NCBI GenBank assembly: GCA_000091205.1 | Contig: AP006500.2 | Length of the DNA stretch: 64,000 nt | Origin: Cyanidioschyzon merolae | Lineage: Eukaryota | Strand: one strand, 5' to 3' | Shown: one piece after another, positions 1 through 64,000 of the stretch | How the letters are laid out: every line of letters begins with the position of its first letter | Numbering within the stretch: the stretch's first letter is position 1 | Position numbers and translations under genes: made by a program | The notes under the pieces: generated by a model | Told to the model about the DNA's origin: nothing | Seen by the model: only the letters and a program-made list of their open reading frames with translations | The model's database searches: none

Positions 1-979
1 TCACTGCGCTCGGTATCGTGAGCCAGAGCAAGGCCGTCGACGCCGAGGCAGTGTCTGCCGTAGCCTGCGGGTACACGCGACACGTCGCTAGCTGCCAGAG
101 CGTCTCTAGCCAGTTGCTCGTATCTGACGACTGTGAACGACACTGCATTTCACCGTGCCGACTAGGACGCTGGTTCCGGGTTGTCGCCCGAGAACTCAAG
201 CGGCCACCTTGCAGAAAGTTTGGCGGAAAAGTCATTTCCGAGTATTCGTACCTTGGGCCGCTTCCACACGCCTCGTTCAGGTTCTATCAAGTCTTTGGTG
301 AGATCCTTCTCCTCTACATAGCGTTCGGGCTGTGCGGTTACGAGGTTCGGGGTCGGTCGGTTTTTCGGTTTTGTGTCGAACGCAGCGTTGCGTTGACCGG
401 GGCGGGTCAGCGGTCGAACGCTTGCTTGACCAACCTGACGTATCGGTGAAGTTGCTCGCGAGTGCGCTCATGTATTTACCAACTTGCTTGCCTCTATTAT
501 GACAAAATCATAACTTGCTTGCTTGCTTGCACGCTACTCGAGCGCAAACACTATGACAGCGTTTTCGCTGCCTCTACCGCGAACCGCCCCCGCGACTGGC
601 AGTACGCTTTTGCGTCCACGAACGGACCCAGTCAGTCAGCGAACAAGAACTTCGCCTCGTCATATGCGGGTCTAGGTATCGTTTCGCTTCATGGACCAGC
701 TGTTCGAGTAGGTCTTTCAGCGAGTCTGGTGCCCACGAGAATCGCCATCCAGATGAACCGCAACAACTGCGGTTCCAAAGTGCGCAGCACCCTCAGCATA
801 CGCTGAAACCCAGGTACTGCCCGGGCATGGTGTACCTGATGCGGCTCACCAGTGTGTTTCCTGGACTCGGGAGCCCGTCGACGATGCCCACGCCTCCTCG
901 CGAAAGCGTCAAAAGCGAAAGCGGACATGGACGAGCCGCAACGCCAACACTGTTTACAACGCGAATGCTCGCAGAGCTT

Positions 980-2035
980 CTATCGCCGGCCGTGCCATGA
1001 GCGTTTTCGAAAGTTGATAAACCAGTTAGATACTTGTTTCACAGACACACCAGTCTGGGCACTCAACTGAACCTTCACCGCGTCACTTGGGTACGGGTGA
1101 TCCCAGTGCGCTCTGGCCCAGGCTTCGAATACAGCAACGGCATGCTTCGGAAGCGGGGTTCTTCGGCGCGAGCTCGCCCGAGCAGGTTCTTGCGAGAGCG
1201 CTGCTCTCAGCGGAGTCGTTTGATCACCGGATATCGAACGATTCGCATAAGCGTCTCGTCTCAGTATATGTGTGGTCGGAGTCGGTCGTCCCGAGGCAGG
1301 GCACGCACATGTCGATGACGGGCATGCCGTGCTCCGATGCACTCCAGCGGCACGCGGAGATTCCCAGCAAGGAACGCCTTCGTGGAGCACACTGGTGCCC
1401 GCACAGATACGTAGGCGCTCGATCGGCAATGCCCTGGGCAGTGGTGTCGTTTCCGCAGTCCCGAGGCGCCCAGTCGAGCGTCCGTCGAAACCGTTGCGAC
1501 TGGGCTCGACCGCAGAGCTTGAAGCTGCGCCCGCCGAGAAGCATGGACGCAGTCGGCCGCGTTGAATGGAGACAACATCAGCCTCATGGGCGGAGTGTTT
1601 GCATTCGGTGAGGTTCTGGCCTGCAAGTGCCGACTCCCCAGCTTCGTAACAGATCACATCGCGCTGAAAGTCATCCGAGTTTGCTGACCCGGGCGCAGAG
1701 CACAATGCTCGCTCACCAAGAAACAGGAGCGCAGCCTCGACATGAGCGTCGCCGTCATCGTCGAATGCACCACCTGTTCCCGCGTGCTCGACATGGCTCG
1801 GCGCTTGCCAGTCACAGACCTCGCTTTCTCTGGACGAAAAACGCAGACCGGGCTGCGCTGGAGCAGATGTTACAGATCCTGCTACTTGATTCGAATCCCA
1901 TTTCCGCGGTATGTCTTCCGACTTTCTCGTCTTGTAGGTCATGAGGGTTTCGCTTGACCAGCGCTTGACGGCAGCAGTCAAGTTGACTACTGAGTTGACC
2001 ACTCCGTCTGCGGGTGAGCGCTGTCGACCATGCAC
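980..2035 (-). CDS. TALE-class homeobox protein, KNOX-like. The C-terminal homeodomain reads '...HWDHPYPSDAVKVQLSAQTGVSVKQVSNWFINFRKRSW'.
   Basis: A 351-aa ORF. Its C-terminus carries a TALE homeodomain with the three-residue loop extension (P-Y-P) and the WFIN-x-RKR recognition helix. The spacing and the 'xHPYPS...NWFINxRKRxW' pattern resemble KNOX-type homeodomains. A (CAT)n/(ATG)n repeat lies just upstream of the ORF start. Confidence 0.6.
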   Translation of the reverse strand: MHGRQRSPADGVVNSVVNLTAAVKRWSSETLMTYKTRKSEDIPRKWDSNQVAGSVTSAPAQPGLRFSSRESEVCDWQAPSHVEHAGTGGAFDDDGDAHVEAALLFLGERALCSAPGSANSDDFQRDVICYEAGESALAGQNLTECKHSAHEADVVSIQRGRLRPCFSAGAASSSAVEPSRNGFDGRSTGRLGTAETTPLPRALPIERLRICAGTSVLHEGVPCWESPRAAGVHRSTACPSSTCACPASGRPTPTTHILRRDAYANRSISGDQTTPLRAALSQEPARASSRRRTPLPKHAVAVFEAWARAHWDHPYPSDAVKVQLSAQTGVSVKQVSNWFINFRKRSWHGRR

Positions 2036-3175
2036 TAACCACCACCATCATCATCATCATGATCATAATTGCTCTGGGATGACGTCGTTTTCATGATGAC
2101 CAGTTCACAACCCTTGCCCGAATCCCTTCTCCTGCTCGCAGCGGCTACCAGGGCATACCCCCAGCGGCATCCACACAGCCGCTGCAGCAGGCGCTCCAGC
2201 TGATCCGCGCGACCCGCGTACGGAGGGCGCCAAGCGCGCGTGCATGACGACCGTTCCGCGGGCCACGCTGACGGGCGCGATCGATGCGCCGCGGCGATCG
2301 GACGCGAACGCTATAGGCGAGTGGAATATTCATCCATAATTGTTCTATAATGTTCTAGTTTCTTGATTGGCGAATCACGCCCTGGAGCGCGGACGCTGCA
2401 CTGCGGATGATGCCGCTTGCCGCACCAGCGTGCGCTGCAGGCTCCTATCCGAGGTGTGCGTGCGTGCGTGCGTGCGTGCCTATATACAGGGACACGTGTC
2501 CCGTAGAGGCATACGTGTCCGAATGGCGATTCTTCGAAGCGTCACGCATGCGGCAATAGCGGGTGCGTTTCGCCTCTGAGAACGTTCCGCTACGTCTCCC
2601 AGCGTACTTGTCAGTGCAGCGTATACCTCGTGCGTCTTCGATATTCAGAACTGCACGCATACGCATGCGTCGTCGTGCGCACAGAACCTGCACGTCGACG
2701 GAAACAAAATGCATAGGATGGAATGCCCTGCTCACGGTCGCTTTGATGGGCTGTCTTCGGGCCACCAGGCGTCATCAGCAGCAGAGCGATCTCATGGTCA
2801 TCGGGCGGGTGCTGTAGGCATGCACTCGAGCAACCAGTACTGACCTGGTACCCGCGATTGCCAGTCTCCCGAGCATCTGCAAGCGCATTATACTACACGT
2901 GTCCTGGTCTGCGATCTGCGCAGGTCGGGCCCCGGGTCCCAGAGCACGAGGTCGTGAGATCAATGCACTCGCTCACGGAAGCTTCAGAAAATGATGGATA
3001 GCGGCTTGAACATGTTTGGGGAAACCGCGCGAAACAGCAAGAGATGCCCGGCGAGCACATATACGCAGAACTGGACGAGAGCATTCCTGATTCGCAAGGG
3101 CATCCCTAGGGGTGCGCGCACACCGTCCCGTACCACGCGCTGGGGCTTGCCGGTCTCGAGGACGCATCCTGCCCG

Positions 3176-6960: not shown

Positions 6961-7599
6961 ATCTACGGGATCGCATCCAGTGGAGCGTGTAGCATCGCTT
7001 TGCATGAGGCGAGCGTTGTCGGACGGGAGTCTCTCGACCTGTTCCCTGGTCTGGCGTCGCCTTCGAGGCCTTGGTGCATCATGGAAAACATCGCGCTCCA
7101 CGAACCCGCTATCGAGTGGACCAGCGTGCGCTTCCACGCCCAGCAGACAGCGTCCTCGACGCTGGGAGCGCCCTGAGGAAGCCCCTGATCGTAGAGTACG
7201 GCACGAGACGCAGAGACGCGAGGCGGGTATCGAGGATAGCCTGCAGTGCCTGCCACGAGCGTGTACCGAGCGATGACGCAAGCGTTGACGCGCCACAGGG
7301 CAGCCTTCTCATGAAGACGTGTGGTCTGCATATCGTTAGACCTGAACGCAGCCACGTGTCGTCTCTGCGAAGGGCGTCTCCAGGTTGTCTGGCGAAAGGA
7401 TGAGAGTGGCAGGCGAAACGTCGATCACAACTTTTGCCAGTGCACGGCATGCGTTGACAACAATCGGCAGCTACGACACCGGGATTTGAACACCACCACC
7501 TATATCCATCGACTGCTATCGACGGAGCTGGCGGCAAAGGGGAGACCAGCGTGTTTACACCCGGAGATTCGAGGAAACACAGGGAAACATTCTTGGGGA

Positions 7600-8290
7600 A
7601 AGAGGCCACAAACGCTGGTGCGCATAAGAATAGGACGAAACGAAAACCTCGGTGCGTACGTCTTTATCAGTGGATCTGTTCTATCTGGTACTGGCGTGAA
7701 CAGTGAAACAGAAAATGGTTCACAACCATGGACGGTAGATATATCCACTCACCCGCTGACGTCTCCCGGCCTTTTTGACCGACCCTCTGCTATCTGCTCC
7801 AGCTTTTCCTTCTACTCTTCGAGCCTGAGAGGCTGCCCCACAAACTTGTATCTCGTCAGCCCCGGGGGTCTCGTCTTCAGCACCACAAATCTCCTGGTAT
7901 TGATGACAGCGCTGAGGTCCTGGTACACGAATCCGATGCGTTTGCTGCCGCTGATAGAACTCATCAGTGCAAGAATTCCTCGAACTCGCGCACTCTGTTC
8001 CACTATAGTCTCATTGTCGTCCAGCCCAACAAACACCTTTTCCCGCCTATTTCCCTACTTATTCTTTTTCGTCCTCATTTGCCCCGTTTCGCTGGATGAT
8101 TGACGAGGAGCGGATCTTATTCGTTGTTTTCCAGCAGCCAGCGACACAGTGCATCCACGATCCCCGATTTAGGCATCAATACCTATCCCCTTGACTTTTT
8201 ATTTCTTCAACTGAACACACTGGGAACGCGTCTTCTATAACCCGAGAAAAGTCATTTTTAATGAAACGCATCTGGTAACGGAACACTATT
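7600..8290 (-). repeat. Truncated, diverged copy of the Fanzor/TnpB-like element 3' region (copy B)
   Basis: The ORF at 7812-8036 (-) reads 'RIGFVYQDLSAVINTRRFVVLKTRPPG', homologous to the '[27 protein letters not shown]' segment of copy A. Its downstream part (7600-7810) aligns by eye to the post-stop blocks of copies A, C and D ('gacgtctcccggcctttttgaccg'; 'ccatggttgtgaaccattttctgtttcactgt'). Upstream, 8040-8290 aligns to copies C and D. Confidence 0.7.
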
Positions 8291-8570
8291 GAAGTGAAAG
8301 TCTATACACCGATCGTCTGTCTGGACGGTGGCTCGCCACACCGATCGCACCAACACACGAGTGGCGCTTGCCGCTGCAAAACATACCATTGTTGCTCATT
8401 AGGAGTAGGTTCTAGAGCTTGCACTCCTTGTACGTCGATCATCATCTATACAGGCACAGGTAATACGTTTCCGAGCCAGTGACTTTCCCAGACAGAATCT
8501 GCTTTTGAACTAGCTTGCTGAACGTGTTTGATCGTGCGCTTTGGGAGCAGGTACTTGAGCTTCGACGCTC

Positions 8571-9380
8571 ATGTGGGGAAGTTTACGCCTCTTGTCGCGG
8601 ATCCGCGTCCGCAACGGTTTGCCAGAAGCGTCTACTGGCAGACCGCTGATCAACCTGAGGTGTCGTTCGATGCACAGCAGCCAGCGAGACAACCCTGCAA
8701 CGCAGACAGACGTCGCTGGGACCCAGCGCGCACTCAGTTCCGTTGCTGCTGCGGTAGCGGCGACGGCTGGGTCCGCCAATGCCAACATTCCGCTGCCTGA
8801 CTTGCCGTACGATTATGACGCTTTGGAGCCGGTCATCAGTGCAGAGATCATGCGTTTGCATCACACCAAACACCACCAGGGCTACGTGAAAAACCTGAAC
8901 AACGCACTGAACACGCTACACAGTACAGACCACGTTCCAACGCTCATTTCGCTGCAGCCTTCACTGGTATTCAACGGAGGGGGCCACCTCAATCACTCGA
9001 TCCTTTGGACGAATCTGGCTCCAGTCGGGAAGGGAGGCGGCGAGCTCCCGGATAAAGATTCACCCCTATTGAAAGCCATAGAGAGCGATTTTGGTAGCCT
9101 GAACAATTTCATGAGCTTGATGAACACTGCCGCAGCTGGGATTCAAGGTAGCGGTTGGGCCTGGCTCGCCCTGAATCGGAACCTGCGGCGACTGGACATC
9201 ATCACTCGGTCGAATCAGGATCCCGTCGTAGGGGCCTACACACCGCTCCTCGGTATTGATGTTTGGGAGCACGCCTATTATCTCCAGTACAAGAGCGATC
9301 GCGCAGCATATCTGAAGAACATCTGGCAGGTCATCCATTGGAAAGATGTCATGAAGCGTTACGAAGCTGCGATCGCATGA
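8571..9380 (+). CDS. Manganese superoxide dismutase (Fe/Mn-SOD family) with an N-terminal targeting extension
   Basis: Diagnostic Mn/Fe-SOD motifs are present: 'LHHTKHHQGYVKNLNNALN', 'GGGHLNHSILW' and 'DVWEHAYYLQYKSDRAAYLKNIWQVIHWKDV'. The true start is probably the internal Met near position 8670 (MHSSQRD...), followed by a presequence rich in A, S and R. Confidence 0.9.
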   Translation: MWGSLRLLSRIRVRNGLPEASTGRPLINLRCRSMHSSQRDNPATQTDVAGTQRALSSVAAAVAATAGSANANIPLPDLPYDYDALEPVISAEIMRLHHTKHHQGYVKNLNNALNTLHSTDHVPTLISLQPSLVFNGGGHLNHSILWTNLAPVGKGGGELPDKDSPLLKAIESDFGSLNNFMSLMNTAAAGIQGSGWAWLALNRNLRRLDIITRSNQDPVVGAYTPLLGIDVWEHAYYLQYKSDRAAYLKNIWQVIHWKDVMKRYEAAIA

Positions 9381-15283: not shown

Positions 15284-17635
15284 ATGCCACGCCTCAGAGG
15301 CAGAGGAAGCTCTCGGTCGGAGGAGACTGCATCACACGAAAGTACGCCAACAGGGAGCACGGCAGCTACACCAGCTAGCGAGGACGGCAGTGGCACGTCA
15401 CGCTCAGCAGCGAACGAGTCGGACGAGTGGAGCGCGAGCGCACTCGGTGCGGCACTTGTTCAGGGACTGCGAGCACTCCTCGAAGACGTGTCCCTAAGCT
15501 TTCAAACCGAGTCAAGTGGTGAGCGACCTAGTCAACGGCGCCGTTCGCGTCGCCAACACCTGCAGTTCCAACGCTATGCATCGAGTCGTCTGGCTCCGAA
15601 CGTCGGGGTGAACCGTGCCGCTATCCAAGCGGATATCGCTTTTCCACAAGCGCTCTGGCAGCTGGATGAGTCAGGACGTGAACGAGAACGCTCGATTGAA
15701 GACATCGAGAGAATGGAAGCTGTTTTGACGTACTTGAGCTACTGGCTAGGCGAGCGCAACGGAAGTCGCGTGGTGTACGGCTCGCAGCAGCGTTTCCGGA
15801 GCCCGTTGCATGAAACGGACGCTGCTCTGCGCCCAGTTTGGGCGATTCGCCTCGGCTCGGTTCCTGACGCCTTGAGAGCGCGTGAATGTACCGCAGAGGC
15901 GGTCCCAATGCCGGGTCTAGCAACCAAGAGTCGTCTGTGGACCGAGCCGCCGCAGCTGCTCGCGGAATGTCATCGCGAGCGTCTGGAACAGTTCCTGCAT
16001 CTCTTGCTGCCGCCGACAACTGAGTCGAACCTGCCACTGGATGCTCAATATTTTTCATCTTTCTGGTATCGATTTTTATTTCTAGAGAAGGAGCTCCTGC
16101 GCTCTGTGGACGTTCGTCAGCCAACGGCACCTCCGGTGCATTACTCACAGCCGCTCAGCGACGGTGATCCGCGAGCTGCCTCTGAGGCCGCTGGGATCAG
16201 TGCAGCTACCTCTACCGACACTTGTTCAAGTTTTCAGCAGCCTTGGTCGCGACTTTATCCAGGTGCATGTAGTACACGAGCGCCCGGAGCTGCAAGTCGA
16301 TCCCTACCCTGTGGATTCCATGACGCTGCGATGGCGTCTCTGCAGGAGCACTATGTTCCGCAGTTTCCGCTGCGCAAACTCGATGTCTACTCAGCGAGAG
16401 CGTACGGGTGTCGCTTTTTTGATGAAGGAAGACTACTCGTAACGAGTTGCCAGGATCGACGCCTCCGCTTGTACGACACCAGTGCTCTGGATGTGTTCGA
16501 GTGGTGCGGCGGTTCACCGGAGCACTCGCTTTTGGAGCGATGGGAGCGACCTCCTTCGGAGCAGGATTGTCGCGCTCGCTTGCCGGTAAGCGAGGTGATC
16601 GCTCGGGACCTTCGCTGGACCGTAACCGACGTAGACTGGTCTCGACAAGCGGACGGCACCAGTTGGCTCGCGTACGCTTCGATCACGCCACGTGTTTATC
16701 TGGTTCGGTTGGATGCAGTAGAGGCGCAGCAGGCGCTGAGTTTTGCGGCACCTGCGAATCTCGTCCTTGACCAGAGCAGCAGCGAAACCGGTGCAGCAGC
16801 CGGCTGGACTAACTTGCTTGATGCAGAGAACTCCTACGGCCTTGGGATATGGAGTGTTCGTTTTCGACCTGATGGATCGGAACTGGTGGCGGGTGCCAGC
16901 CACACGGGTCATGTTTTCGGTGATCTCGTCGTTTATCGCCTGGAGCGGCAAGCGCCGGTGGCATCACTGCGAGCTCACCAGGATGACGTGAACAGCGTGG
17001 CGGTAGCGGGGGCAAACCTCATCCTCAGTGCTGCGGATGACGCCTATATTCACGTATGGGATCGTCGAGACCTTCGCCGGCCTTGCGGCTCCTTTGTGGG
17101 CCACACCGAGGGTATCACACACGTGTCGTGGCGTGGAGAAGAGGTCGCTCCGCAACTCCGATGCGCAACGGACCTGCTTGACCAGCGCTATGTGGTGAGC
17201 ATCGGCAAAGACCAGCGATGCAAGCTATGGGATATTCGTTTGCTGCGAGAAGCGAGTCAGGTCGAGCGGCCGCGTCCAACGCATTACGACTACCGTTGGA
17301 ACGATATGGTGAATCCGCCACTCGATAATCGAAGAACCCTTCGCGGGGATAACTCGCTTTACACATTCATTGGTATGCGGGTTTTGAGTACCCTGATTCG
17401 AGCCTACTTTTCGCCTCTGTCTACAACGAGTGGGCGATACATTTACACCGGAAGCCAAGATGGGCGCATTTGTCTCTTTGATACGGTGAGCGGCATGCCG
17501 CTCACGGCACTGCGTGGACACGAAGCCGCAGTTCGAGAAATGAGTTGGAGTCCGCGCCTGCCCGGAGTACTTGTCAGCGCTGGTTGGGATGGTCAGGCGC
17601 TCATCTGGCGACCGGCTGGTGTTGAAGATCACTGA
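15284..17635 (+). CDS. DCAF11: WD40-repeat protein, DCAF11/WDR23 (LEC14B)-like CUL4-DDB1 substrate receptor
   Basis: A 783-aa ORF whose C-terminal half has WD repeats. Blocks match DCAF11 closely: 'AADDAYIHVWDRRDL', 'GHTEGITHVSWRGE', 'IGKDQRCKLWDIRLL', 'TLIRAYFSPLSTTSGRYIYTGSQDGRICLFDTVSG' and 'VSAGWDGQALIWR'. Confidence 0.75.
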   Translation: MPRLRGRGSSRSEETASHESTPTGSTAATPASEDGSGTSRSAANESDEWSASALGAALVQGLRALLEDVSLSFQTESSGERPSQRRRSRRQHLQFQRYASSRLAPNVGVNRAAIQADIAFPQALWQLDESGRERERSIEDIERMEAVLTYLSYWLGERNGSRVVYGSQQRFRSPLHETDAALRPVWAIRLGSVPDALRARECTAEAVPMPGLATKSRLWTEPPQLLAECHRERLEQFLHLLLPPTTESNLPLDAQYFSSFWYRFLFLEKELLRSVDVRQPTAPPVHYSQPLSDGDPRAASEAAGISAATSTDTCSSFQQPWSRLYPGACSTRAPGAASRSLPCGFHDAAMASLQEHYVPQFPLRKLDVYSARAYGCRFFDEGRLLVTSCQDRRLRLYDTSALDVFEWCGGSPEHSLLERWERPPSEQDCRARLPVSEVIARDLRWTVTDVDWSRQADGTSWLAYASITPRVYLVRLDAVEAQQALSFAAPANLVLDQSSSETGAAAGWTNLLDAENSYGLGIWSVRFRPDGSELVAGASHTGHVFGDLVVYRLERQAPVASLRAHQDDVNSVAVAGANLILSAADDAYIHVWDRRDLRRPCGSFVGHTEGITHVSWRGEEVAPQLRCATDLLDQRYVVSIGKDQRCKLWDIRLLREASQVERPRPTHYDYRWNDMVNPPLDNRRTLRGDNSLYTFIGMRVLSTLIRAYFSPLSTTSGRYIYTGSQDGRICLFDTVSGMPLTALRGHEAAVREMSWSPRLPGVLVSAGWDGQALIWRPAGVEDH

Positions 17636-20168: not shown

Positions 20169-20942
20169 TGTCGCTTAGTCGCGAGGGCTGGTCAGTGGAA
20201 CCATACAGGTATCTAGATCAAACCACCGACAAATCCCTCGAGTCTTCTCACGTAGCCTCTGTACCTCGCACAGCGCTTTCGATAGCAGCACAGCGGGGCA
20301 TGCTTGCTTCCCCACGGTCCAGATTCGGGAGTGGGTACACGCCCTCGGCTGGCGTGCGCGTGCCGTGCATCCCCATGCGGCGACCGATACCCTGCTGTCC
20401 TTCTTGTACTAAAGTGTATCGTTTAATACAGATCCGATGAGCTGCATTTCCCTGGCGATGCAGCAGCGGGCGCTCGCGGAGACGCGGGAACCCTGCGACA
20501 CTGGGCGACGAGGGCGCTGCTTGGAATGACGGAAGCGAGCTCAGCTTCCTTATAGATCACTTTGGGTTCGACCAGCTCGGAAAAGGCTTGTTATCAGAGG
20601 GATCGAAACTTGATGAATCCAAAGAGCTCCTGAGTGCTGACCCCGTTCGCGCCAGCGGACGTGCATGCGTGTCAGCATGCATTGGAATCGGTCGACGTAC
20701 CTCACACGGACGTACACGCTACGGTTTGCGTCTCTTTCCGTTGTCTGTAACACGAGAGTCTCTGGGATATTTTTGTGACTCCTTTATTTGCCTATCTTAT
20801 TGTCGACTTTCAATGTGAAGATCTCTTCTTTCCCTGAAGCTCCGTTGTCCATCGGCGAATGATATTGATAGCAGTGTTCAAGTTGCGACTTGCTGCGTTC
20901 TGCAGTTGGCGACGCATTAGCTGCACAGACCAAAGATGCGAT

Positions 20943-21553
20943 CTAGGCTTCGCTTGCCATGTTCACCTTCGTGGTATACAGGCTCGGTGCGCACCCTTCG
21001 CACCGGTGACTCATGACTGTGATCAGATGGTCTCGGACGACCACAAAAACTCGTGACGCTCCAGAGGCTGTAGGGCGGCGTGAGAACGCGTGCTTCATCG
21101 CTCGGTCCGTGCCCTTGACGGTTGAAGAAGGCTCCACGCGATAGTGTCCTCCTCTTCTGCGCACACTACCGCACTCTGTGATCAGGGGTTTCTTCTGAGA
21201 GATCCCTCTGGCGAGTACGCTGTCGCTGCATGCGCAAGCGCGTGCAGTTTTCCGAACAAAACAGCACGGATGGGACGCGATGTTGTCGGTGATGATGCGC
21301 ATTCGGGAAGGGAAATCCAGGTTGGAGATGATATCGAGATATTTCGAAACGTTTACGCCCTGTTCGTGCAACGCGATGACGCAGGTCCGGACCCGGGATC
21401 CACTCTCATGGGAACAGGCAAGATGAGTGCATCAGGGAGCACGGATCCTCTGACTGGTATCATGCTACCATGGAAATCCGTTTTGTCGATGGCCTTGCAG
21501 AGAGGCGGATATGCCCTCCGAATGGCGCGACTCAATTGACGAGAGACGTTCAA
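20943..21553 (-). pseudogene. Possible decayed DDE transposase (pogo/Tc1-like) relic
   Basis: The minus-strand ORF contains 'RIITDNIASHP', resembling the DDE_1 'LLLDNASSHP' motif. An adjacent frame gives 'ALQPLE' (compare 'LQPLDQGII'). Frames are broken and the spacing is atypical. The relic lies in a gene-poor, AT-richer interval of ~3 kb. Confidence 0.25.
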
Positions 21554-25045: not shown

Positions 25046-25359
25046 GTCTGTCTCGATGCCCTCCCAAATTCAAGAAATAGGAGTCCAGCTCGAAGAACCA
25101 AGCTTCACCAAGTAGCCTTTTTGAGCAGAGCACGTCCCTGGTTCGACAAATGGGAGTACCACGAACGACAACCGCCTTTCAAAAGAAAAACGCTGTCACT
25201 GGCCGTATACAGTCGTGGCGGCGAATGCGCGTAGACAAAACGCCTCCAACTGACGCGCAGACGCTTCCGAGGCTTTCTCGACCGGCCACCCACGACTGCT
25301 TCCAATTGTTTCTAATATAGTTCCACTTTGGGATGTTGTCCAACAATGTTTTCTCATGT

Positions 25360-25884
25360 CTACGCTGGAGGTCTCTTCTCCAGCACCGCACATCTCCGGA
25401 TATTGATTGCGGCGTTAAAGTCTCGGTTCACAAACTCCATCCGTTTCTTGCCATCGTTGGTTGTACTTACGAATGCGAGTAGCCCTCGAACTTTCGCCCT
25501 CCTTTCCATTTGCTCCTCCGTCAGCGGTCCGAACTTTTTTATATCCTCAGGGCTCCGCTGGCACTTTTCCATATCGACCCGCTGGAGTGTACACCTCAGC
25601 CCGTGGTGTGTATACGATGTTCGGAACTCATCTACAGGTATCGTAACGAAACGCCTTGCGCACTGCTTGTACGTTCTTGTCGTTGGAGCTGGCGTACACC
25701 CTTTTCGGGTCTTCCAGCGCCCTGCTCCGCGTGCTACTACGAGCCTCTGACTTTTATCCTCTTTGAAGGCGCTCATTGGAAAAATTCGCAGATGCACGCT
25801 GCCTCCCACCGTATAGATGAATACGTAGACGAGCCCAAAAGGGCTTTGTGTACTCTTTCCACAGCGCCTCACAATGAGCAACAC
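25360..25884 (-). CDS. TnpB/Fanzor-like nuclease, C-terminal segment (OrfB Zn-ribbon region + RuvC-III)
   Basis: '...[30 protein letters not shown]...[28 protein letters not shown]'. The Zn finger appears degenerate (HH...C...C instead of CxxC...CxxC). Confidence 0.7.
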
Positions 25885-25975
25885 GAATTTCCATGAATTT
25901 CAGAAACGCTTTAAAGTCCGCTCCGCGGCAAGTCACCTCGCTCAAAGCTTCCCGGTGATCCTTCATTCCATCGTT

Positions 25976-26578
25976 CTACGTCTCAATTTTCTTCCTTGCA
26001 TTCATGATTCCCGATTCTCGATAGTATCTCGCTCTCGAGAACCTCAACAGACGCACGTCTTTCTGACGCAAGTTGCCGTCGGTATCATCTCCCCCACGCT
26101 TGGGTACAGCGACGGTTATAATATTCGTGTTCCCGGGGTCCGCGCCACCGACAAAGCAATTCTCATGCACTTTCCGCGTCGCAGGACCCGCCTCCTTCTT
26201 TTTTTCATGCTTCGTCGCGCCAACCGTAAAGTCGTTAGCTTGCACTTTCTGTGTCGCAGGATCCTTCTCCTTCTCATCTTCATGCTTCGTCAGCGGCGGA
26301 ACTGGACGATCCACCTTCAACCGCCGATAGTGTACACACAGGGCTACTCCATCGGTTTCGATCAACCCAGTGAACAACTTTTGCTTGCTTATTTTGAGAC
26401 GTTTGAAAACGAAGATATTCTTCCAGTGCATCTCCCTGTTCTCACCTGTGAACTCTGCCCTCCTTACATCGAACTCGGGACTGATCTCCTTCATGATGCC
26501 ATGAAGGACTCTGGAGCCGGTAGTAACAAAATGTGACTTGATGGTGCACATTGGAACGACGTTGGAGCGCTTCCCCAT
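25976..26578 (-). CDS. TnpB/Fanzor-like nuclease, central segment with the RuvC-I motif
   Basis: '...[51 protein letters not shown]'. It contains an internal tandem duplication of ~66 bp (26160-26290; '[16 protein letters not shown]' / '[16 protein letters not shown]'). It is out of frame with the downstream segment, indicating a frameshift or a small intron. Confidence 0.65.
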
Positions 26579-29500
26579 TAGGGCCGCCTTCCGTCTCTCC
26601 CACTCTTCATTTTTTCGTCACTCAGCTTTATTTCCGCCTTGCGTTCTGGCGCTCGGTCCAGAAACGCGAAATAGCACAGAATGAGGCGATAGTATCTTTC
26701 ATTATCTTTTTTCAGCTCTGATATCTTTTCTCTTGAATTCGCCAGCCCCGAGACTGCACGGTGCTCTTGTATAACAGCACGGATTACAGAAGCTTCATTC
26801 GTGCTCCTGCGTGATTTCTTCTCGTCGACGAATTCGATCTAATCTTCATGCTTGCGATCGTTCGTGATACCGTTGATAATCGCCCATATTCCTTTGCGAG
26901 ACAGGCCCGGGTAAATTGCAAACACGGCGCATATCATAAAACGTTCGAGGTTCATCCTCAAATGCTTCTTCAGGTTCGTGAGGTACTTCATCGCCCCGTA
27001 TGTGTAAGTATCCCGGTCACCCCTGTATCGAGTACCCTCGAAGCGGAATTCCGCGAAGTTTTCGTGGAGGACGTGCACTAGCTCATTTTCCGTCCGCGTT
27101 TCCCCTGTGCCAAGCATCAGGTGACGAATAAAGGTCTTGTCGAAAACTCGTCCGGAATCTCGACTGTTTCCGTATGCGCCACGTCTTCGTACATCTCCCT
27201 CGCCATATGCATGACTCCTAAAGAAGCCTTTATAACACTCATGGGGTACGAATCGACACGGTTCCTGATAGCGTCTCGCAACTTTTCCTTGTAGGGATCC
27301 TTGATATGTTTACGAAGACAGGCGTTTACCACCATCTCGTCGTACTTTCGTCTTTCGTACAGCATGTAAAGTCGGGTCTCCTGCCTTAGCTTCTTCGTCT
27401 TCTCCTGCTCCACTTGGCTCGGCACTCTGTTTCGCTTTCTCTGGCAGCCGGCGAGGTTGTACCACCGGTATCATCCACTTGCTTCTCCATACGTTTCCAT
27501 TTTTGAAAAAGAACGCGCTTTGATCGCTTCTGCTATGTAGCGCGAAAAATCAATCGAATACACCCCCCCTGAGGATTGAAACACAATGGAACTGAGAAGC
27601 TATACTTGCGGCCACTTTCACACAAATACACCCTGTACGATAGAACAACACGCGAAAGATCAGAATCGCGTTTCCCTTCAACGGCGACATGCGCGTCATG
27701 TCTCGTGACTGCCGGATCTCCCGGGTGCGCGTATCGAGCGCACTATGTACCAACAAGAACATAGACTAACGATAAACTACCAACGATACAAAAATTCCTT
27801 TCCCCTCTACGATAAACGTTGAACGTGGGAAACCGCTTCCGTACTGTCGAAAGTTAGCCTTCTTGACGGAAGGTCCCGCGAGCCGGACGAGTCTGTCACG
27901 TTTGTGTTTCATGCTGCACTCAGTGGCAGGTACTTCAGTGGCAGGTACTTCAGTGAAATCTGAGCCACTCGTCCGCAACGCAGTTTCCTCTGAGACTAGG
28001 GGCAGTTAAGCTGTGTCTGGGCGTCGCCCATGTTGCAACTATCTCCGAGCATATCGCTTGGCGCTGCTGCAGGCAGTAGGGCTGTCTGCCCAGTTTTCAG
28101 GCTCCCAGAATGACAATTAGCTCTGATTCCGTGTCAGGTGTAGTATTCGTCGGGCCGACACCATCGGGAGTATGGCAAAGCCGTTCTGGCTACGTGCAGC
28201 ATCTGCTCCAGCGGTGTAGGCGCTGCAGCGGGTGCTCAGCGCAGGCACTCGGCACACGGTAGAACGTTCGAAACGATCAGTATACCCGAGATGAAGAGTA
28301 AGTAATGGAACTTGAAGGTAGGATGCATGATGATGGGCGCTTCCCCGAAAGCCATTATCTATGCCGCAATCTGAGATCCATGGTTCATGTAAACGTTTTG
28401 ATATCGAAAAAAAAATCGCTACCGCCATTGTCATCCCCGCGGATCCATCAACTGGTGATCGCCTCGTCCATGATCTGTTTCATTGCACAGGTCGCTCGAT
28501 GGACAAGCGTTCCTCAACTGCGCGCTTGAGATGAGCGATCGGGAAAGCATCCATCGATCTAGGTCCTGCCTCCAAGTTCCGTGGTGCATACGTCTCCTCC
28601 GAGTGTACTCGTTATCTCTTATGTTCTGTGGTATGCGTCGAGGCTGTTGTGAGCGTTTGCGATAGCGCGTGTAGCGTCGATGCGCACGCAGCCCCGAGGT
28701 CATGTCCACGAAGCGGTTTGTGTGCACGGCCGCCGATGTATTGCTAGTGAAACATGTCGATACAGTGGATCGGGAGTGCTCTGGATGCACTGGTGCTGTC
28801 GGCAGCTGGGGAATGGACACTTGTTTCTTCTCGGATATGGCAGCGTCGTGATGCCTGCAGACCAATTTCCTAGACGAGAATCGGGATTCATAGCATAGAC
28901 GCTTGAACGCTGCGCCCTATCAAACCGCTGGTAGCGGAGCCTGTGGCAGCGCGCAACCCTATACGCCCGCTCGTGCCGCGGAGCATGGCGCAGGCTTCAT
29001 GGTATTCGCGCATGCGTTCAAAAAAGGGTCCCGGAGTGCATCGCTGCCCGTTCCACTGAGGTCGCAGGCTCACCGATACCGCCTCATCGATCCTGGGGCC
29101 GTTCATATCAGTGGATGGAGGTGCTGCGTGATGAAACTACGCAGAGAGGTTTTACCTGGATTCAGACTGCAGCAGGAAGCACGCCTTCGTTCAGTCTCGA
29201 GAGTGCTTGCCTCAGCAGCAGCGCAGTGTCATTTGCCATGAAAACCTACGCAGGTGTCCCAGCGGTCCAGCGTCGCGAGAGGCTACGGATAGCAGCTCCC
29301 CCCGGATCGATGCAGATGCAATTGCGGCTAGGCGAAACCGATATCTGTGCCCGGCACGAATCGTGAATGTGGATACGTATACGGATGCATCCATAAGTGC
29401 GTCCATCGCTCGCCAAGGTCGATGCAGCGTCCGTTATTGCGCAAAAAACGACGATTCCGTGGACCTTCAGCGAAAAGGCGAGCTGCGCTCCACATTCCAT

Positions 29501-41195: not shown

Positions 41196-42329
41196 TTATA
41201 AAGGTCCAAGAAACTTCGCCTTCATTGCCCTCGAGCGTACGGTTATGCCGAGGAATTCCCTGCCCTGTAACGGGAGCGCGACATAGGGCGCTCTGCTGTC
41301 CGCAGATTGCGGCGAAGTGGCAGCGCGCAGCTGGACAGCAGCATCCCCCGGAGCGTATCGCCTTTTCGTGAGAGCGGAGCGTATCCGAAGGAGGGATTTC
41401 CTTCGGGTGCAGGATTATAGACGTGAGCTTGTTTTTCCCAATAGCGCCATGGTTATGGGATATCCGGGAGAGCGTCTGGTTTTCTGAAGGATATGGCTTG
41501 CACTGCCCCAGCGTACAGACAAGGCGAGCTGGGGCTTGACTTTACGGCATCGTCGCTGGATACGTTCGACGTGCTTGCACTGCATCTGCGTCTTTTCACT
41601 AAACATTGTTTGATCGGGCGGGTTTTTCTTTTGGAATGCTAAGCTGATGCGTGCGCATAGAAGCGGTTGGATGCCTGCATCATGAGTGTCAGCATGGGAA
41701 CGGGCCAGGTACACGTTCCGAACTCGGGCGTGAACGCTAGCTTTCTTGTTTCTCTCAGGTGTGATGGACAGCTGCCGTTGGGGAATTTTTTTCGGCGACT
41801 GTTCACGTTTTCTCTCTTAGTTCCAGATTACAATATGCTGGTCTATTCTTTCCATCCAGCTCTGTTCACAGCAGTTGACGGATGTTGGCGGTAGCGTTCA
41901 AGTCCGGATTTCGTACCTGCCGACAGTTGTCAACGCATTTCATGCACAGACGCAAGATGCGGTGTAGGCTCGCTTGACATCTTCATCTTTTTCATGTACA
42001 GTCTCGGTACGCAGTTTGCAGCTGTGACTCCTGGATATGGACAAATGAAGTATAAATCTATCTGCCATACCCTCTCGACTGAGATCCACGTTGAAGCGCG
42101 TAAACGCCTGCTAGATCGCTCCGTATACGCCCTTATATGAAAGGCGATCCTCGATGCCCTGCTCCGTTTCCGTGCCAGGAGCGATGCCCTGCAATGACGC
42201 GCTTGGTTTGGACTATACCGTCGGCGAATGTGCTGCCGGCTGAACGTGCAAGCGCATGCCGTCCATGATAAAAATTAGCTGAGGGCATATCATAACTGGA
42301 CAACAAGTCGAGAAATGTCGATTCGTCTA

Positions 42330-42949: not shown

Positions 42950-43650
42950 ACAGCTAGAACATAGTTCCGGAAAAGAATCGAACTGGATGAACAAAGCGAG
43001 TCATCCCCTACTCGATTTTATCGTCAGCGAAATGAGAAATGTTCTACGATAATTGAGGGTGTATGAATACATACATACGCAGACGCCTCCCAGCCTTGTT
43101 TTGACCGGTTCCCCGATACCGGTTTCAGCTTCTCCCTGTATACTTCGATCCTGAGAGGCTGCTGGACAAAAGTTGGACCGGGGCAGCTTCGAGGGTCACG
43201 TCCCCGGTACCAAACTTCTTCTGATATTGATGGCGGCGTTGAAGTCTCGGTTCACGAACTCCATGCGTTTATTGCCGCTGGTGAAGCGTATCATTGCAAA
43301 GATCCCTAGAACTCGTACCCTCTGTCCCAGTACAATCTCGCTATCGTCCCATCGGACAAACAGCTGTTCTCGAGTATATATCCCCTGTTCTTGTTCTTCG
43401 TCACTTGCTTTTCTTCGCTAGATAGTCGACGAGAAGAGGATCTTTTTCGGTTTTTATCCCGGTCGCCAGCGACACCAGCCCTCTAGAATCCCCGACTCCC
43501 ATGTCCATACGGTTCGCTTAGATTTCTTATTTCTTCAAATGAACGCTTTTCGGACGCTTCGATTACAAACCGAGAAAAAGCGTTTGATGCGACGCACCCG
43601 GAGATGGCGCACAATTCAAGAAAGCGTCTACAATCTGACACGAGCCCACC
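42950..43650 (-). repeat. Truncated, diverged copy of the Fanzor/TnpB-like element 3' region (copy C)
   Basis: The reverse complement of 43201-43260 encodes '...[20 protein letters not shown]'. The reported plus-strand ORF 43173-43421 is the antisense frame of this. The flanks align to copy B ('cttcgatcctgagaggctgc', 'gcagacgcctcccagccttgttttgaccgg', 'ttatttcttcaaatgaac...ccgagaaaaagcgtttgatgcgacgcacccgg'). Confidence 0.7.
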
Positions 43651-44692
43651 GCGGCTCGAGCAGGCAACGTACGCTCAGTGCCGCCTTTCGCTTCCTCGGT
43701 GTCGGTCTGGTACCTGGGCGCCACGAATGGGGCGCTGCAGCTCGTGTCGGAACAAGACGATATACTTTTGCTATGTAAATCGAGAGTTTATTTGCTTGAA
43801 CTGCGTGTTCCAGCCGAGGTATGAACTTTCCGTTGTGCGCTCGTACAAGGAATGGATTCGAGACTCGAGCTACGAGCAGCCTCCACGTTGTCCGTTTACC
43901 GGAGCGCCTCTCCGACACGGTGAGGAGCTGGTTCGGCTACCACCCCCTGACCTACGTGTGGTTTCCGCCGCGGGACTCGCAGCTTATCTTCGTGGGCGTT
44001 TCGGCCCGGACACAACACCAGCAGGATTCCGTTCGAACGAGCTGCCTTTCGGGTTGGTGCCGGACCCGCAGGATGACTCTGCAGTGGCGCAGCGTTTGCG
44101 GAGGTTCCTCGCGTTGCTCGGCTATGATGCAGCTCTAGCCGTAGCAGAGCCGCTGGAAGACAAACGTTCGAGTCCCGGCACCGTCTCGGCAGAGGGAGGC
44201 ACGCAAGCCGCCAGCGAGGCAACGCTGTTGGAGCGGCGCCTCCCGAGCGAGCAACGCCCGGTGTCTCGCCCGCTGGAGGCCACCACAGAGGCCGTGAGTC
44301 GCACGGCGCCGCGAACGGGCTCCAACACAACGATCGTGGTGGAGTCTCACAAAACCTCCGAGCCCGACTCCACGACAGCGATCGCTCCGGCACGGAAGCA
44401 GAACGCTGCTGGTCGTACAGCGGATAATGACAGCAAGGAACGCAAAATACGACAACAGAAAATACGGCGGTTCCTCAACTTTTTAGGTCAGAGCGCTGAA
44501 GTGCTCCCTTTGCCACATCCACGACCTAATCGTCGAAACCGTCGTCTGACGGGGCTCGCGCTGTCCTTCGGCTTCGGCGTGGGTATTTTAGTGTTTCTCG
44601 CGTACGTGGTTCGTCATGGTCTATTCAATCCGCTGGCTTTATGGGAATATGTCGTCGAAAGACGTCAGGGCATGTTGAGCGTTGAGCGTTGA
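43604..44692 (+). CDS. ZFPL1: ZFPL1-like (zinc finger protein-like 1) tail-anchored Golgi protein
   Basis: The N-terminal Zn-finger/RING-like region 'CSSCRNKTIYFCYVNREFICLNCVFQPRYELSVVRSYKEWIRDSSYEQPPRCPFTGAPL' matches the ZFPL1 pattern ('...NLFCFEHRVNVCEHCLV...CIVQSYLQWLQDSDY...C..C..PL'). There is a single C-terminal transmembrane helix, 'LALSFGFGVGILVFLAYVV'. Confidence 0.7.
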   Translation: MAHNSRKRLQSDTSPPRLEQATYAQCRLSLPRCRSGTWAPRMGRCSSCRNKTIYFCYVNREFICLNCVFQPRYELSVVRSYKEWIRDSSYEQPPRCPFTGAPLRHGEELVRLPPPDLRVVSAAGLAAYLRGRFGPDTTPAGFRSNELPFGLVPDPQDDSAVAQRLRRFLALLGYDAALAVAEPLEDKRSSPGTVSAEGGTQAASEATLLERRLPSEQRPVSRPLEATTEAVSRTAPRTGSNTTIVVESHKTSEPDSTTAIAPARKQNAAGRTADNDSKERKIRQQKIRRFLNFLGQSAEVLPLPHPRPNRRNRRLTGLALSFGFGVGILVFLAYVVRHGLFNPLALWEYVVERRQGMLSVER

Positions 44693-48160: not shown

Positions 48161-49015
48161 CTCTTTGCAACAAAACAGCGTAGACCGATCGACATTTCTC
48201 GACTTGTTCTTCAACCTGGATTTTCCTTCCGGTACTTTTTTTCATCTCGGATAACATTGCATTCCGCAAATCCTCGATCGAATGCGACGCAGTGCGCTAG
48301 CGTATGCAGCGGACAGTGTACTCGCCCAGGGCATGTATCCGAACTGGCGCGTGTGAACGTCGGGCACGGCACCGGGCGCGGAAACGGTGGCCTGCATCGA
48401 GGCGCGCCTTGTGTTCGCGTCAAGCTCATGTACCGAACGATAAAGCAAGCGCTCACGCTCCACAGAACGGATACCAGAGGCGGAGGAGAACCTGTGATGG
48501 GCGTGCCAGAGAACATCACCCCAGCTCAATATCACCGCCGCAATGGGTGCACCGCGGCTTCATACGAAAGAAGATGAACATGGCAAGCGAGACGTAGATT
48601 GCAAGTTTCGTCGATACATGGAATTCGTCAACAGCAGCCGGAATCAACGACATCGGGACATGAACGCTGCCAGCAACAGCCTTTAAATACTAACAACACG
48701 GTACACGATAGAACCTATGCAGCAACCAGTATATCCCAGAGCACGTATGGAGTTTGGGGCTTGGAAGCAGGGCGCGGAATCATGTATGCTTCACCGCGCG
48801 CTGATATCGAGCGCACTGTCGGGGAACGCTAGCGTGCTTCAACGTTTTTGTCACAGAAACAAGAATGCTGACAACGGGACTGGAGGGAAACGATAGACCG
48901 GCGTATTCAAATCCGGAGAAAACGTGTTGAAAAGGAAGCATTCGCAGAGAACGCCCTCCTAGACGAGAACTGATGACACTGGGAACAGATCCAGACTTTA
49001 GCATGTACGCTTTCG

Positions 49016-61800: not shown

Positions 61801-62224
61801 TGAGGAATCGGCCATCAGGAGAGCGCTCCTCGAAACAGTCATCGTTGTCTTCCGTGCTGGGGCTCTGAGCGCTAGGCGCAGTCACTATGCCAGCCGGAGC
61901 ACTGGCAGCTTCACCACTGCGATGCATACCGCCGGCTGCGGCACCAGAAATCATAGCCCCAGCGCCCGGCTGTCCACCGTTCACTGGACTCAACACAGGC
62001 GGCGCCGACTGCTCCTGTGTGACAGTTGTTTCGGAGCACACACCAAGCAGAACTGGCGCCGCCTCCGTTGAATCAAAACACGCTGCGGCACTGGGCACCG
62101 CCGCACCGGCATCAGCTGGAACCGCGCGCCTAGCCGGCATCACAGGGTCCCACAGCTCCGCCCGCCTAGACACGAACGGCCCATTCACTGAAGAAGGTTC
62201 GCCCTGCTCGTCGTCTCCCATCAT
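58841..62224 (-). CDS. WNK: WNK-family ('with no lysine') serine/threonine protein kinase with a long low-complexity C-terminal tail
   Basis: The kinase domain reads 'LGTGAYKTVYKGFDTDNGIEVAWNKLNIQRL...' and has the WNK hallmarks: the catalytic Lys is in the beta2 strand 'AYKTVYKG', and 'VAWN' replaces the VAIK lysine. It also has 'IMHRDLKCDNIFINGNIGEVKIGDLGLS' and 'GTPEFMAPELY'. This is an uninterrupted 1127-aa ORF. Confidence 0.85.
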   Translation of the reverse strand: MMGDDEQGEPSSVNGPFVSRRAELWDPVMPARRAVPADAGAAVPSAAACFDSTEAAPVLLGVCSETTVTQEQSAPPVLSPVNGGQPGAGAMISGAAAGGMHRSGEAASAPAGIVTAPSAQSPSTEDNDDCFEERSPDGRFLRFPEVLGTGAYKTVYKGFDTDNGIEVAWNKLNIQRLTNQDTERVMNEVNILRSIQHPNIINLFAGWEVRDERGRVRGAHFITELMTSGTLKQYIAKVKMIKVKVIRKWCRNVLEAIHYLHSCTPPIMHRDLKCDNIFINGNIGEVKIGDLGLSSVKDRASKCGYTVIGTPEFMAPELYDENYSEKIDIYAFGMCMLEMVSTEYPYAECENAGQIFKKVLNGVLPEALSRMVECDLKRVILQCLASESQRPTALQLLNHPLFADWESDDGSLSNVDLMVSPNSGRSRSSLEVPRSMTQFPDGDTNAAKQSLTSNLSPSPSSTTVSRLSMEHAPSRARARNGDQTTPDAEAHSIVEHPATGKATSAGNITVNYIIAGRASHNASPTISALHDQSPNAKDSSAVAGEERTKDAICGLLGVQQADAAAGALHQGPGRRRIFEGVDIDEAAAAPPTRPIVRVIGRADESFRSILPAESGSISGTDTSAVPDSQHALSVDVTSVDATNRSGVNDRKLVYSGILVLSVRIPVSGAVKRITFAMDPYRESAEQVAREMVEELNLDEAQAENIAQAIDRQLDLHLQPTATAGLPRTKPLPVETVSSIPTIRVVTTPLERLQEPPESEASPNLVSVPGAPAPTALRSSASPPVERTPAQTISGLSTITEISNSDTRAVHTAPKPSERAGNDRREAAQGLPPGAPLGTPDCVAQVLRSSVAPTAPPLRPASSVPNAAGVPVVVVMETPPSDARENLSTDQTRCVHASEVDTCHAASFLEGASVLYRPAQSAGAILDEGACLQTPVYESSALQPATSSDSAITNDMPAAGPSRRATSEPASEVPLSGLHVVTVDESFMKSFVGKSSRTDECAPELTRDASWTHAHDDPRLTGSERITRADSFSYDYDKVVDAKSTRSPSPLPTSPSARSSPSPSPSPPLDVHDLVQAMYGQMPALKRHSSSVAQVAGLVPVTSIDATSSTTDATGHRGQRRAPDRGQG

Positions 62225-62624: not shown

Positions 62625-62663
62625 ACGTTGCGCGCTGGTAACTAGCGCGCAACGTAATTGTAT
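62625..62663. repeat. Perfect GC-rich inverted repeat, 15-bp arms and a 9-nt spacer (aattacgttgcgcgc-tggtaacta-gcgcgcaacgtaatt)
   Basis: The right arm is the exact reverse complement of the left arm. It lies ~400 bp upstream of the WNK kinase start codon and at the 5' edge of Fanzor-related copy D. Confidence 0.9.
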
Positions 62664-63300
62664 TCCGTGGCCGGGAGCGTGTCGTCGAATGCTGTTTCGC
62701 GGTTGATGGCAGGGGCGTTGACGTGCGTTCATTTGAATGAACGAAAAAAATCCAAAGGAAATGCATGGAGATAAAGGTCGGGGATTCCAGAGGGCTGGCA
62801 TCTCTGGGTACCGTGAAAGGACTGAAAATTCTCTTCTCGTTGACTATCGGGCGTAGGAGAGCAAGTGACGAAATGGAAGAAGAGAAGATATCATCGAGAC
62901 AAGGCGTTTGTCCTACGGGACGATGACGGGACTATAGTGGGACGGAGGATGCGAGCTCTAGGAATCCTGGCAATCATGCGTTTCACTGGAGGCAATAAAC
63001 GCAAGGAAACCGTGAACCGGGACTTCAACGCCGCCATCAATACCAGATGATGCGCGGCGCTGGAGACGAGACCCGAGGAGCAGAGGCGAGCGAGCTTTGT
63101 GGGGCCCCCTCTGAGGCTCGATGTCTACGTCGAGGAAAGTGATACCGAGCGCAGGCGGTCGGTCAAGAAAGGTTGGGCAGCGTCTGCGCGTGGACACGTA
63201 CGTAGATCTTCCATGGCTGCGAAACGTTTGCGTTTACTGTCATGTTTAGTAGAGTTTTTTGGTTTGACACGTCGTCTACAGCGACGATAGATCCCAGATT
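62650..63300 (+). repeat. Truncated, diverged copy of the Fanzor/TnpB-like element 3' region (copy D, plus orientation)
   Basis: The ORF at 62865-63050 (+) reads '...[33 protein letters not shown]'. Downstream, 'gtcggtcaagaaaggttgggcagcgtctgcgcgtggacacg...ccatggctgcgaaacgtttgcgtttactgtca' matches the post-stop blocks of copies A and B. Upstream, 62690-62865 matches copies B and C. A perfect 15-bp inverted repeat sits at the 5' boundary (62625-62663). Confidence 0.7.
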
Positions 63301-64000
63301 GCGGGATGGAATCTGGTATTCGGGAAAGCATCGAACATGCAGCACCCTACCTTCAAGCTTTGTAACCCCGAATGCTTCTCGTATATATTGGTAGTTTCGT
63401 ACAGTCTATTGCGCATCGAGTGCCTGCCCTGAGCACCCGCTACAGCGCTTATACCGCTGGTGCGCATGCAGCACAGTAACGGAACGCCTTTGCCATACGA
63501 CTTGGGGCGTCGCCTGGAGGCGAACTGCCCCTGAACCAGGCTCCGGTCTTGTCGCCGCTGCGCGACGCTCTGGAGAAACCAGACAGCAGCTAGGATGAAT
63601 CCTGAGCGCCGCCTCTCACGTTCGCGATGTTGTACGCAAAGCGTTGTCGGTTGGCGACGCGGGCTTTTGCTTGGCATTCACCAGTGAGCAGGTGTGCAAG
63701 GCACCGGGCCTTCCGACGAGAAGGTAGAATGTGAGTTTGCTGGCCGCTACTGAGCGTTGGGGCTCGCTCAGTTACGAGACCGACGCCTCAATCGATACGA
63801 GCGCGGATGGATTGGACGGGCGTATGCGGCCTGTGGGGTGGTCTTGTGCCACAGGCGCTTCCGCTGACGGGTACGCGGTGCGCTCGGAGCTCGGGTGCTC
63901 TGCGCGTTTGTTACGGAGTATTGGGGTCAGCGCTGGACACGTTCAGGTACGGAGTAGGAAAATAAGCATGCATAGGATGGGGGTTTGTTGTCTTGTGCGC

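Follow-up and report, generated by a model that had tools for sequence, protein, structure and literature searches.

A probable non-autonomous transposon family with one shared internal deletion, derived from a Fanzor1 lineage of Cyanidioschyzon merolae

What kind of element lies around positions 7600-8290 of a 64,000-nucleotide stretch of Cyanidioschyzon merolae DNA (assembly GCA_000091205.1, contig AP006500.2; this whole stretch is the window hereafter), and did the short Fanzor-like copies of this stretch arise by separate accidents or from one propagated derivative? An earlier note, made from the letters alone, described the locus as copy B, a non-autonomous copy retaining only the 3′ ~700 bp of a Fanzor-like element and sharing its truncation point with two further copies, C and D. 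Our analysis indicated that copy B is very probably a dead member of a non-autonomous transposon family, which stems from a Fanzor1 lineage sister to the CMe-1A family and is defined by one shared internal deletion. It is an ordinary kind of non-autonomous transposon and not a new system.

Architecture of copy B and its relatives in the window

Copy B is a whole short derivative without an open reading frame (ORF) for Fanzor, ~610-624 bp long on the minus strand (8304..7681), as delimited by an nhmmer profile of B, C, and D and by a 20-copy alignment. Its 3′ limit falls somewhere within 7701-7681, where the similarity between copies stops, and a TAG motif is found nearby at 7683-7681. Copies C (43630..~43008, minus strand) and D (62643..~63252, plus strand), delimited by the same profile and alignment, have the same architecture. 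A self-comparison of the window revealed that the three are mutually homologous over ~600 bp (65-71% identity) and that their flanks are mutually unrelated. The profile of B, C, and D matched copy A, the full-length CMe-1A Fanzor1 element of the window (28406..25173, minus strand; 83.6% identity to the 3169-bp consensus over 1-3169), in two parts: profile positions 5-246 matched 27597..27382 (E 4e-15), comprising the 5′ leader and first codons, and positions 297-556 matched 25510..25248 (E 9e-40), comprising the 3′ coding end. The ~1.8 kb absent between these parts constitutes an internal deletion, covering roughly codons 40-625 of the ~734-codon Fanzor gene. Mapping of the CMe-1A consensus, which was taken from Additional file 2 of Bao and Jurka 2013 (PMC3627910), placed copy B on 784-1015 and 2830-3097 (~70% identity), and C and D were equivalent.

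Read from its 5′ end on the minus strand, copy B begins with TAGACTTTC and a leader (8304..8181; consensus ~786-905) holding the conserved block GTTCAGTTGAAGAAATAA at 8216-8199, followed by a start-codon remnant, its ATG mutated, and approximately the first 40 Fanzor codons (8180..8045; consensus ~906-1020). The deletion junction is located at ~8060-8040, beyond which a degraded C-terminal coding remnant of about the last 110 codons (8044..7745; consensus ~2795-3100) ends in a tail peptide containing …RPPGLTRYKFVGQPLRLEE…. The 3′ end is formed by an imperfect palindrome (CCATGGTTGTGAAC … GTTCACGCCA; 7731..7690, with a covariance model R1 match at 7688-7732), which is rearranged in this copy. 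The short element can be summarized as a leader with ~40 N-terminal codons, then ~110 C-terminal codons, then a tail of ~50 bp; it lacks consensus 1-785, including the part corresponding to TE-N2_CMe (a 635-bp element equal to the 5′ 635 bp of CMe-1A; PMC3627910), and its last ~50 bp are unlike the CMe-1A end. No match to consensus 1-680 was found in B, C, or D, and an nhmmer extension of the copy C 5′ end to consensus 680 was discarded as non-significant, 96/1000 shuffles having equaled or exceeded its score. A near-perfect palindrome of 15 bp (ACGTTGCGCGCTGGT A ACTAGCGCGCAACGT; 62625-62655) spans the 5′ border of copy D; none was seen at B or C.

The reading frames are broken in B, C, D, and most short copies, with coding remnants still legible in translation. 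The start MEKEVEDPGG… has become MDMGVGDSRG… in C and MEIKVGDSRG… in D, and across the junction …SDEEQE… is fused to …VFVRRDD.ETIVGQRVRVLGIL…NRDFNAAIN…RPPELTR.NFVGQPLRLEVY.EKLKPIAGGRSKK.GRRL. One short copy from a metagenome contig (L007 10001-10432; ORF P0044) retains an open chimeric frame of at least 143 aa, in which the N-terminal ~45 aa are fused to the C-terminal RuvC-III part. In copy B, the RuvC-III peptide RIGFVYQDLSAVINTRR is encoded at 7940..7890 on the minus strand, within the ORF 7812..8036, and aligns to the RuvC-III region of copy A. Of the three RuvC motifs, copy B keeps only this third one, degraded to YQDLSAVIN, and it therefore encodes no Fanzor; frameshifts and stops accompany the mutated motif in its coding remnants.

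These results bear on the earlier note in several ways. Its degraded RuvC-III remnant was recovered as described, and the relatedness of B, C, and D was borne out. The two-part match to copy A contradicts the claim that copy B is a 3′ fragment, since both ends are kept and the loss is internal, and the proposed span of 7600-8290 takes in 7600-7680, which lies outside the element. The common 5′ limit that it placed near the TTATTTCTTCAA(A/C)TGAAC block, exact at 8199-8216 in B and 43527-43544 in C (two matches vs 0.01 expected by chance) and more diverged in D, is indeed shared, but it falls ~85 bp past the block (8304 in B). Similarly, the conserved downstream block is kept, but it is mostly the Fanzor C-terminal coding tail (…RPPELTR.NFVGQPL…GGRSKK.GRRL; cf. 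P0006), followed by the palindrome.

Copy census and history of the deletion

To place these copies in the family, a search with a junction-spanning peptide retrieved short metagenomic ORFs, and a metagenome scan with a C-terminal motif yielded 79 loci (L numbers) from the same samples, bringing the surveyed sequence, window included, to ~1.27 Mb (~0.72 Mb non-redundant). The ORFs P0039, P0044, P0067/68, and others cross the same junction, and their contigs hold six more copies at unrelated loci. Contigs near-identical to the window (99.4% over 19 kb), all with copy B, were present in several hot-spring samples; synteny with the window was restricted to L001-L006, and the flanks of the other loci were unrelated. 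In total, 20 non-redundant and mutually non-orthologous short-type copies were collected (B, C, D, and 17 from metagenome contigs), with pairwise identities of 64-77% (mean, 68%). All 20 have a common 5′ limit, internal junction, and 3′ tail, and homology is unbroken across the junction (alignment A4); the 5′ limit maps to consensus 782-787 in eight copies. Because the flanks are unrelated, dispersal of the element rather than segmental duplication is indicated.

When the CMe-1A consensus was mapped on all loci, the census comprised 72 non-redundant copies in which the 3′ end is present. Short-type copies with the same deletion (mapped from ~970-1070 to ~2810-2840) number ~23, ~9 are full-length with a TE-N2 head, the 5′ start lies at consensus ~645 in at least 11 and at 735 in two, one has a different internal deletion (679 to 2241), ~10 are assorted 3′ fragments, and the remainder are cut by contig ends. 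Truncations other than the short type are scattered and mostly single, the 3′ fragments starting at consensus 2054, 2061, 2093, 2106, 2209, 2389, 2659, 2676, and 2736. About one-third of the sampled elements with a Fanzor 3′ end thus belong to one gene-less derivative family, in the small, transposable element-poor genome of C. merolae.

A neighbor-joining tree of the shared 3′ 265 nt placed the 20 short copies, together with only three longer fragments, in one clade that is sister to CMe-1A and star-like inside. The mean distances were 0.31 among short copies, 0.21 within full-length CMe-1A, and 0.38 between the groups. This pattern marks a single founding deletion, which arose in a lineage that is older than CMe-1A and sister to it and was followed by a copying burst and then by independent decay. 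Judged by the pairwise identity of 64-77%, the members of the short family are old relics that are not currently propagating.

A longer variant of the short element exists outside the window. In eight of the 20 copies, a ~950-bp module, Z, is placed directly after the first ~60 bp and lengthens the element to ~1.6 kb (L007 8912-10605, L009 8755-10471, L011 1509-3213, L013 8865-10578, L052/L055, L053 with two copies, L054, and L019). An old, strongly diverged, full-length-like Fanzor copy (L038) has Z-like sequence (1522-1902) in a colinear position upstream of its ORF. In a second deletion derivative, the end of Z is joined to consensus ~2736-3168 at two unrelated loci (L025 6353-6927, L065 4997-3601), indicating that more than one deletion form was copied. 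The colinear Z of L038 and its retention in the second deletion type make insertion of Z into the short element the less likely course; the sister lineage probably had Z from the start, and the B/C/D form would have lost it, though the star-like tree gives no order of events.

Ends, RNA structure, and competing explanations

The comparisons show that, in a founder element, a single internal deletion of ~1.8 kb joined the leader and ~40 codons to the last ~110 codons and the 3′ palindrome. Copies of this structure then spread to many unlinked sites and have since decayed independently; the ~0.7 Mb sampled contains at least 20 distinct loci, three of them in the window. Copying may have been performed in trans by the machinery that moved full-length elements, in which case the retained ends, the 3′ palindrome especially, could have served as cis signals. 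The retained 3′ ~150-300 bp would also include the omega-RNA-coding place, and young copies could have acted like the Fanzor1 ghost loci of Spizellomyces. The short family delimits the ~600 bp that sufficed for copying in this unclassified Fanzor1 transposon: a 120-bp leader with the first codons, ~330 bp from the end of the gene, and the terminal palindrome. Such a unit is a compact substrate for identifying the omega-RNA of a red-algal Fanzor or the machinery that transposes it.

No inverted repeat joining both ends of B, C, or D was found, and no target-site duplication was detected, the longest flank match averaging 3.8 nt vs 4.0 nt in mismatched-flank controls, a comparison limited by decay and by boundary uncertainty. 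The unit begins with (N)TAG in seven of the 12 Z-less copies, and a TAG occurs 7-30 nt past the palindrome in 11/20 copies vs 2-5/20 in control windows; this post hoc count is suggestive of an association of the element ends with TAG. The short-type tail of ~50 bp forms an imperfect palindrome (CCATGGTCGTGAAAC, loop, TTTCACTGACTATAA) whose cells are paired at 80% vs ~43% in slid controls, and both inspection by eye and single-sequence folds show terminal hairpins. The covariance model R1 of this palindrome recovered family members only. A sliding RNAalifold scan gave no strand-specific signal and no 5′ hairpin, no Rfam match was obtained, and scans for bacterial promoters and terminators returned nothing relevant. 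As a separate observation, the CMe-1A/TE-N2 5′ head and the palindrome's 5′ arm, TCCATGGTCGTGAAACGTTTCTCAT, are reverse complements (local score 15, reached by 0/2000 shuffles), as compared between short tails such as 7731-7690 and 43055-43012 and consensus 3-30 (window 28404-28377). The match may reflect a cryptic inverted-repeat relation of TE-N2 heads to the 3′ end of the sister lineage, though the family is described without terminal inverted repeats.

Several points weigh against the proposed family of copied, internally deleted transposons. No transposase is known for the family, and no terminal inverted repeats or target-site duplication that would point to a copying mechanism were found. 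Covariation in the palindrome did not exceed that of a shuffle control, and the terminal ~175-230 nt of 20 short-type and of 48 CMe-1A 3′ ends yielded no RNAalifold consensus fold. The census covered only the window and hot-spring metagenome contigs of a 99.4%-identical population, picked for Fanzor 3′ ends, divergence fixes the limits of the short copies only to ±5 bp (5′) and ±20 bp (3′), and no intact full-length parent with the exact short-type 3′ tail was recovered in the sampled loci, where the tail is shared only by longer fragments (L015 1551-2016, L025 6353-6927, L065 3601-4997).

Could B, C, and D instead be independent random truncations or deletions of full-length elements, alike by coincidence? 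The scattered 3′ fragments and the one other internal deletion (679 to 2241) demonstrate that such events occur in this family, but coincidence would have to produce the same 5′ limit, junction, and tail, with continuous homology and a single clade, in 20 non-orthologous copies; this reading is already refuted, and we assign it almost no probability. The random, unrelated truncation points that a copy census and boundary alignment might have exposed were not seen among the short copies, and the suggestion in the earlier note of one propagated derivative proved sound. Its further label, a MITE-like (miniature inverted-repeat transposable element-like) unit or a solo omega-RNA, fared less well: terminal inverted repeats were not found, nor were the target-site duplications that it had proposed to look for, and the fold and Rfam searches provided no positive evidence for an omega-RNA.

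A related possibility is that the short elements are functional ghost omega-RNA loci, still transcribed to supply guides for an intact CMe-1 Fanzor and maintained for that purpose. They keep the 3′ ~300 bp and palindrome, the place where TnpB and Fanzor omega-RNAs are encoded (Saito 2023, PMC10432273), for SpuFz1, working omega-RNAs have been documented from ghost loci that lack an ORF (PMC10432273), and long open frames persist in some CMe-1 homologues, such as the 752-aa metagenomic protein P0001. However, no region stands out as conserved among copies that are only 64-77% identical, no consensus RNA structure, significant covariation, or Rfam match emerged, and the palindrome of copy B itself is rearranged, making such maintained loci very unlikely; an omega-RNA from short elements is plausible by position only. 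Alternatively, the 5′ part may persist through co-option as a promoter or regulatory sequence of a neighboring host gene. Of 14 short copies with a host ORF within 500 bp upstream, 12 face that ORF head-to-head at their 5′ end, 0-414 bp away. Yet the same bias appears in full-length copies (16/21) and is thus a property of insertion or tolerance in the family rather than of the short form, the 5′ parts have diverged as much as the rest of the element, and the gene calls are simple ORF proxies; we consider co-option extremely unlikely. A bolder scenario would make the short family the C. merolae equivalent of ghost loci, the palindrome and adjacent flank of each copy once specifying, or still specifying, an omega-RNA guide, and would explain the head-to-head placement by orientation-specific insertion into single-stranded DNA at active promoters through a hairpin-recognizing, HUH-like mechanism undescribed for red algae. 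This speculation is very unlikely. A dead, internally deleted family derived from the sister lineage of CMe-1A accordingly remains our preferred explanation.

The head-to-head neighbors in the window are Mn-SOD for copy B (267 bp; 8304/8571), the ORF 43604..44692 for copy C, whose 5′ end (43630) overlaps the annotated ATG, and a kinase-like ORF ending at 62224 for copy D (62643; 414 bp); further examples are located at L007, L011, L012, L013, L015, L025, L053, L056, L081, and others. Downstream neighbors showed no orientation bias. Two proteins encoded in the window have identical counterparts in C. merolae 10D, namely BAM82408.1 for Mn-SOD (8571..9380) and BAM82411.1 for a WD-repeat protein (15284..17635). 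Antisense to copy B runs a 260-aa ORF (7321..8103, plus strand) whose counterpart at L001 8751-9533 is annotated as a gene in metagenomes; a Pfam search with it gave no match, and it is probably spurious, running through decayed transposon sequence. An unrelated small dispersed repeat of ~100-200 bp, which is not Fanzor-derived, is found at 7440-7550, 41837-41947, and 20808-21015 and at L011, L025, L036, L043, L067, and L072, with one copy ~130-150 bp past the 3′ end of copy B.

The CMe-1A relatives and comparison with known systems

CMe-1A was described as one Fanzor1 family in C. merolae, with ~150 copies that are ~80% identical to a consensus of 3169 bp, without terminal inverted repeats or determined target-site duplications, and was left unclassified (Bao and Jurka 2013, PMC3627910). 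Frameshifts and in-frame stops make copy A a pseudogene, but it retains GADPG, VDEFRTS, and the third RuvC motif, as do its homologues. Single Fanzor sequences or a shallow alignment (A2) found nothing in Pfam or the PDB, and the AlphaFold model of P0001 was unusable (mean predicted local distance difference test score, 33). A deep profile (A8) of P0001 and remote homologues matched three solved Fanzor1 chains, from Parasitella (9cf0, 3.2e-19), Spizellomyces (8gkh, 2.2e-12), and Guillardia (9cer, 3.2e-7), and the label Fanzor-like is therefore correct.

Several features of CMe-1A itself were observed along the way. A 78-bp in-frame tandem repeat lies in the Fanzor ORF just before RuvC-I (consensus 2117-2196; window ~26250-26090), varying from one to ~5 units between copies (including L017, L036, L042, L043, and L065), with two in copy A. 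The last ~25 nt occur in two variants, CGTTTTTCTTTTGAAAGGC and CGTTCGACTTTCGAACGGC, each able to form its own terminal hairpin (alignment A9 columns ~236-262; window 25195-25174), just downstream of a GC-rich hairpin, CGCCAC…TGGCG, both noted by eye. Many full-length copies begin at consensus ~645, without the TE-N2 part (for example, L018 7742, L031 6615, L050 5603, L078 4811, and L083 7801), and several of them have a 98-bp sequence like the CMe-1A 3′ end (consensus 3071-3168) ~720 bp upstream (such sequences lie at L031 5800-5894, L036 794-891, L043 1232-1329, and L064 921-1018); these arrangements make CMe-1A look composite and the family modular on its 5′ side. Paired copies or 3′ fragments form large head-to-head palindromes, often joined near consensus ~2050-2100 or 735/2 (L070 2439-4513, L071 8227-10396, L052 4-1337, L055 14-2043, L085 2-1717, and L092 4773-10394). 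TE-N2-like heads, fragments of the CMe-1A 5′ end, occur in the window at 63265-63546 (plus), 28499-28698 (plus), and 48696-48853 (minus); one begins ~13-25 bp past the 3′ end of copy D, another sits head-to-head with copy A, and L015, an unrelated locus, shows the same succession of a short element (8181-8797) and a TE-N2-like head (8778-9016).

Among known systems, CMe-1A shares its genome and protein family with copy B and likewise has neither terminal inverted repeats nor a determinable target-site duplication. Copy B differs in lacking consensus 1-785, 1020-2795, and the CMe-1A-type last ~75 bp, in its own terminal palindrome, and in its place in a sister clade; full-length alignment at ~80% identity, the mark of CMe-1A membership, holds for copy A but not for copy B. 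TE-N2_CMe, named as the related short element by Bao and Jurka (PMC3627910), differs too, consisting of the very part of CMe-1A absent from B, C, and D. MITEs and other class II deletion derivatives resemble the short family in being short (~610 bp), non-coding, multi-copy (at least 20 loci), and internally deleted with both ends kept, whereas the short family has no terminal inverted repeats, target-site duplication, or known transposase. IS200/IS605-like and Helitron-like transposons have subterminal hairpins, neither terminal inverted repeats nor target-site duplications, and, in autonomous copies, an HUH or Rep-helicase transposase; the short family has a 3′ palindrome, with no 5′ hairpin, inverted repeats, or target-site duplication detected. 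The Fanzor1 copies CRe-1/2/3 of Chlamydomonas reinhardtii frequently show internal deletions with an intact 3′ end bearing a hairpin (PMC3627910), but their ends are of the Helitron2 type, their target-site duplications after TTTT are variable, and their deletions vary by copy, in contrast to the single deletion fixed across the C. merolae family. A B-type derivative combining 5′ and 3′ parts was not described in the accessible literature, which did not include Repbase.

The ghost Spu-1 loci of Spizellomyces punctatus offer the nearest parallel: 134 ORF-less loci of ~550 nt with a functional omega-RNA, delimited by conserved inverted repeats (30 nt, with a CA motif), the omega-RNA being strongly conserved and expressed (PMC10432273). 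The C. merolae short family differs from them in lacking inverted repeats and a detectable conserved RNA fold, in keeping remnants of both ORF ends, and in its heavy decay. It is similarly short (~610 nt), ORF-less, and multi-copy, its end regions are common with Fanzor-bearing elements, and the 3′ omega-RNA-coding region is kept. Taken by itself, the short family is an expected by-product of DNA-transposon biology, for which the ghost loci provide a close published precedent.

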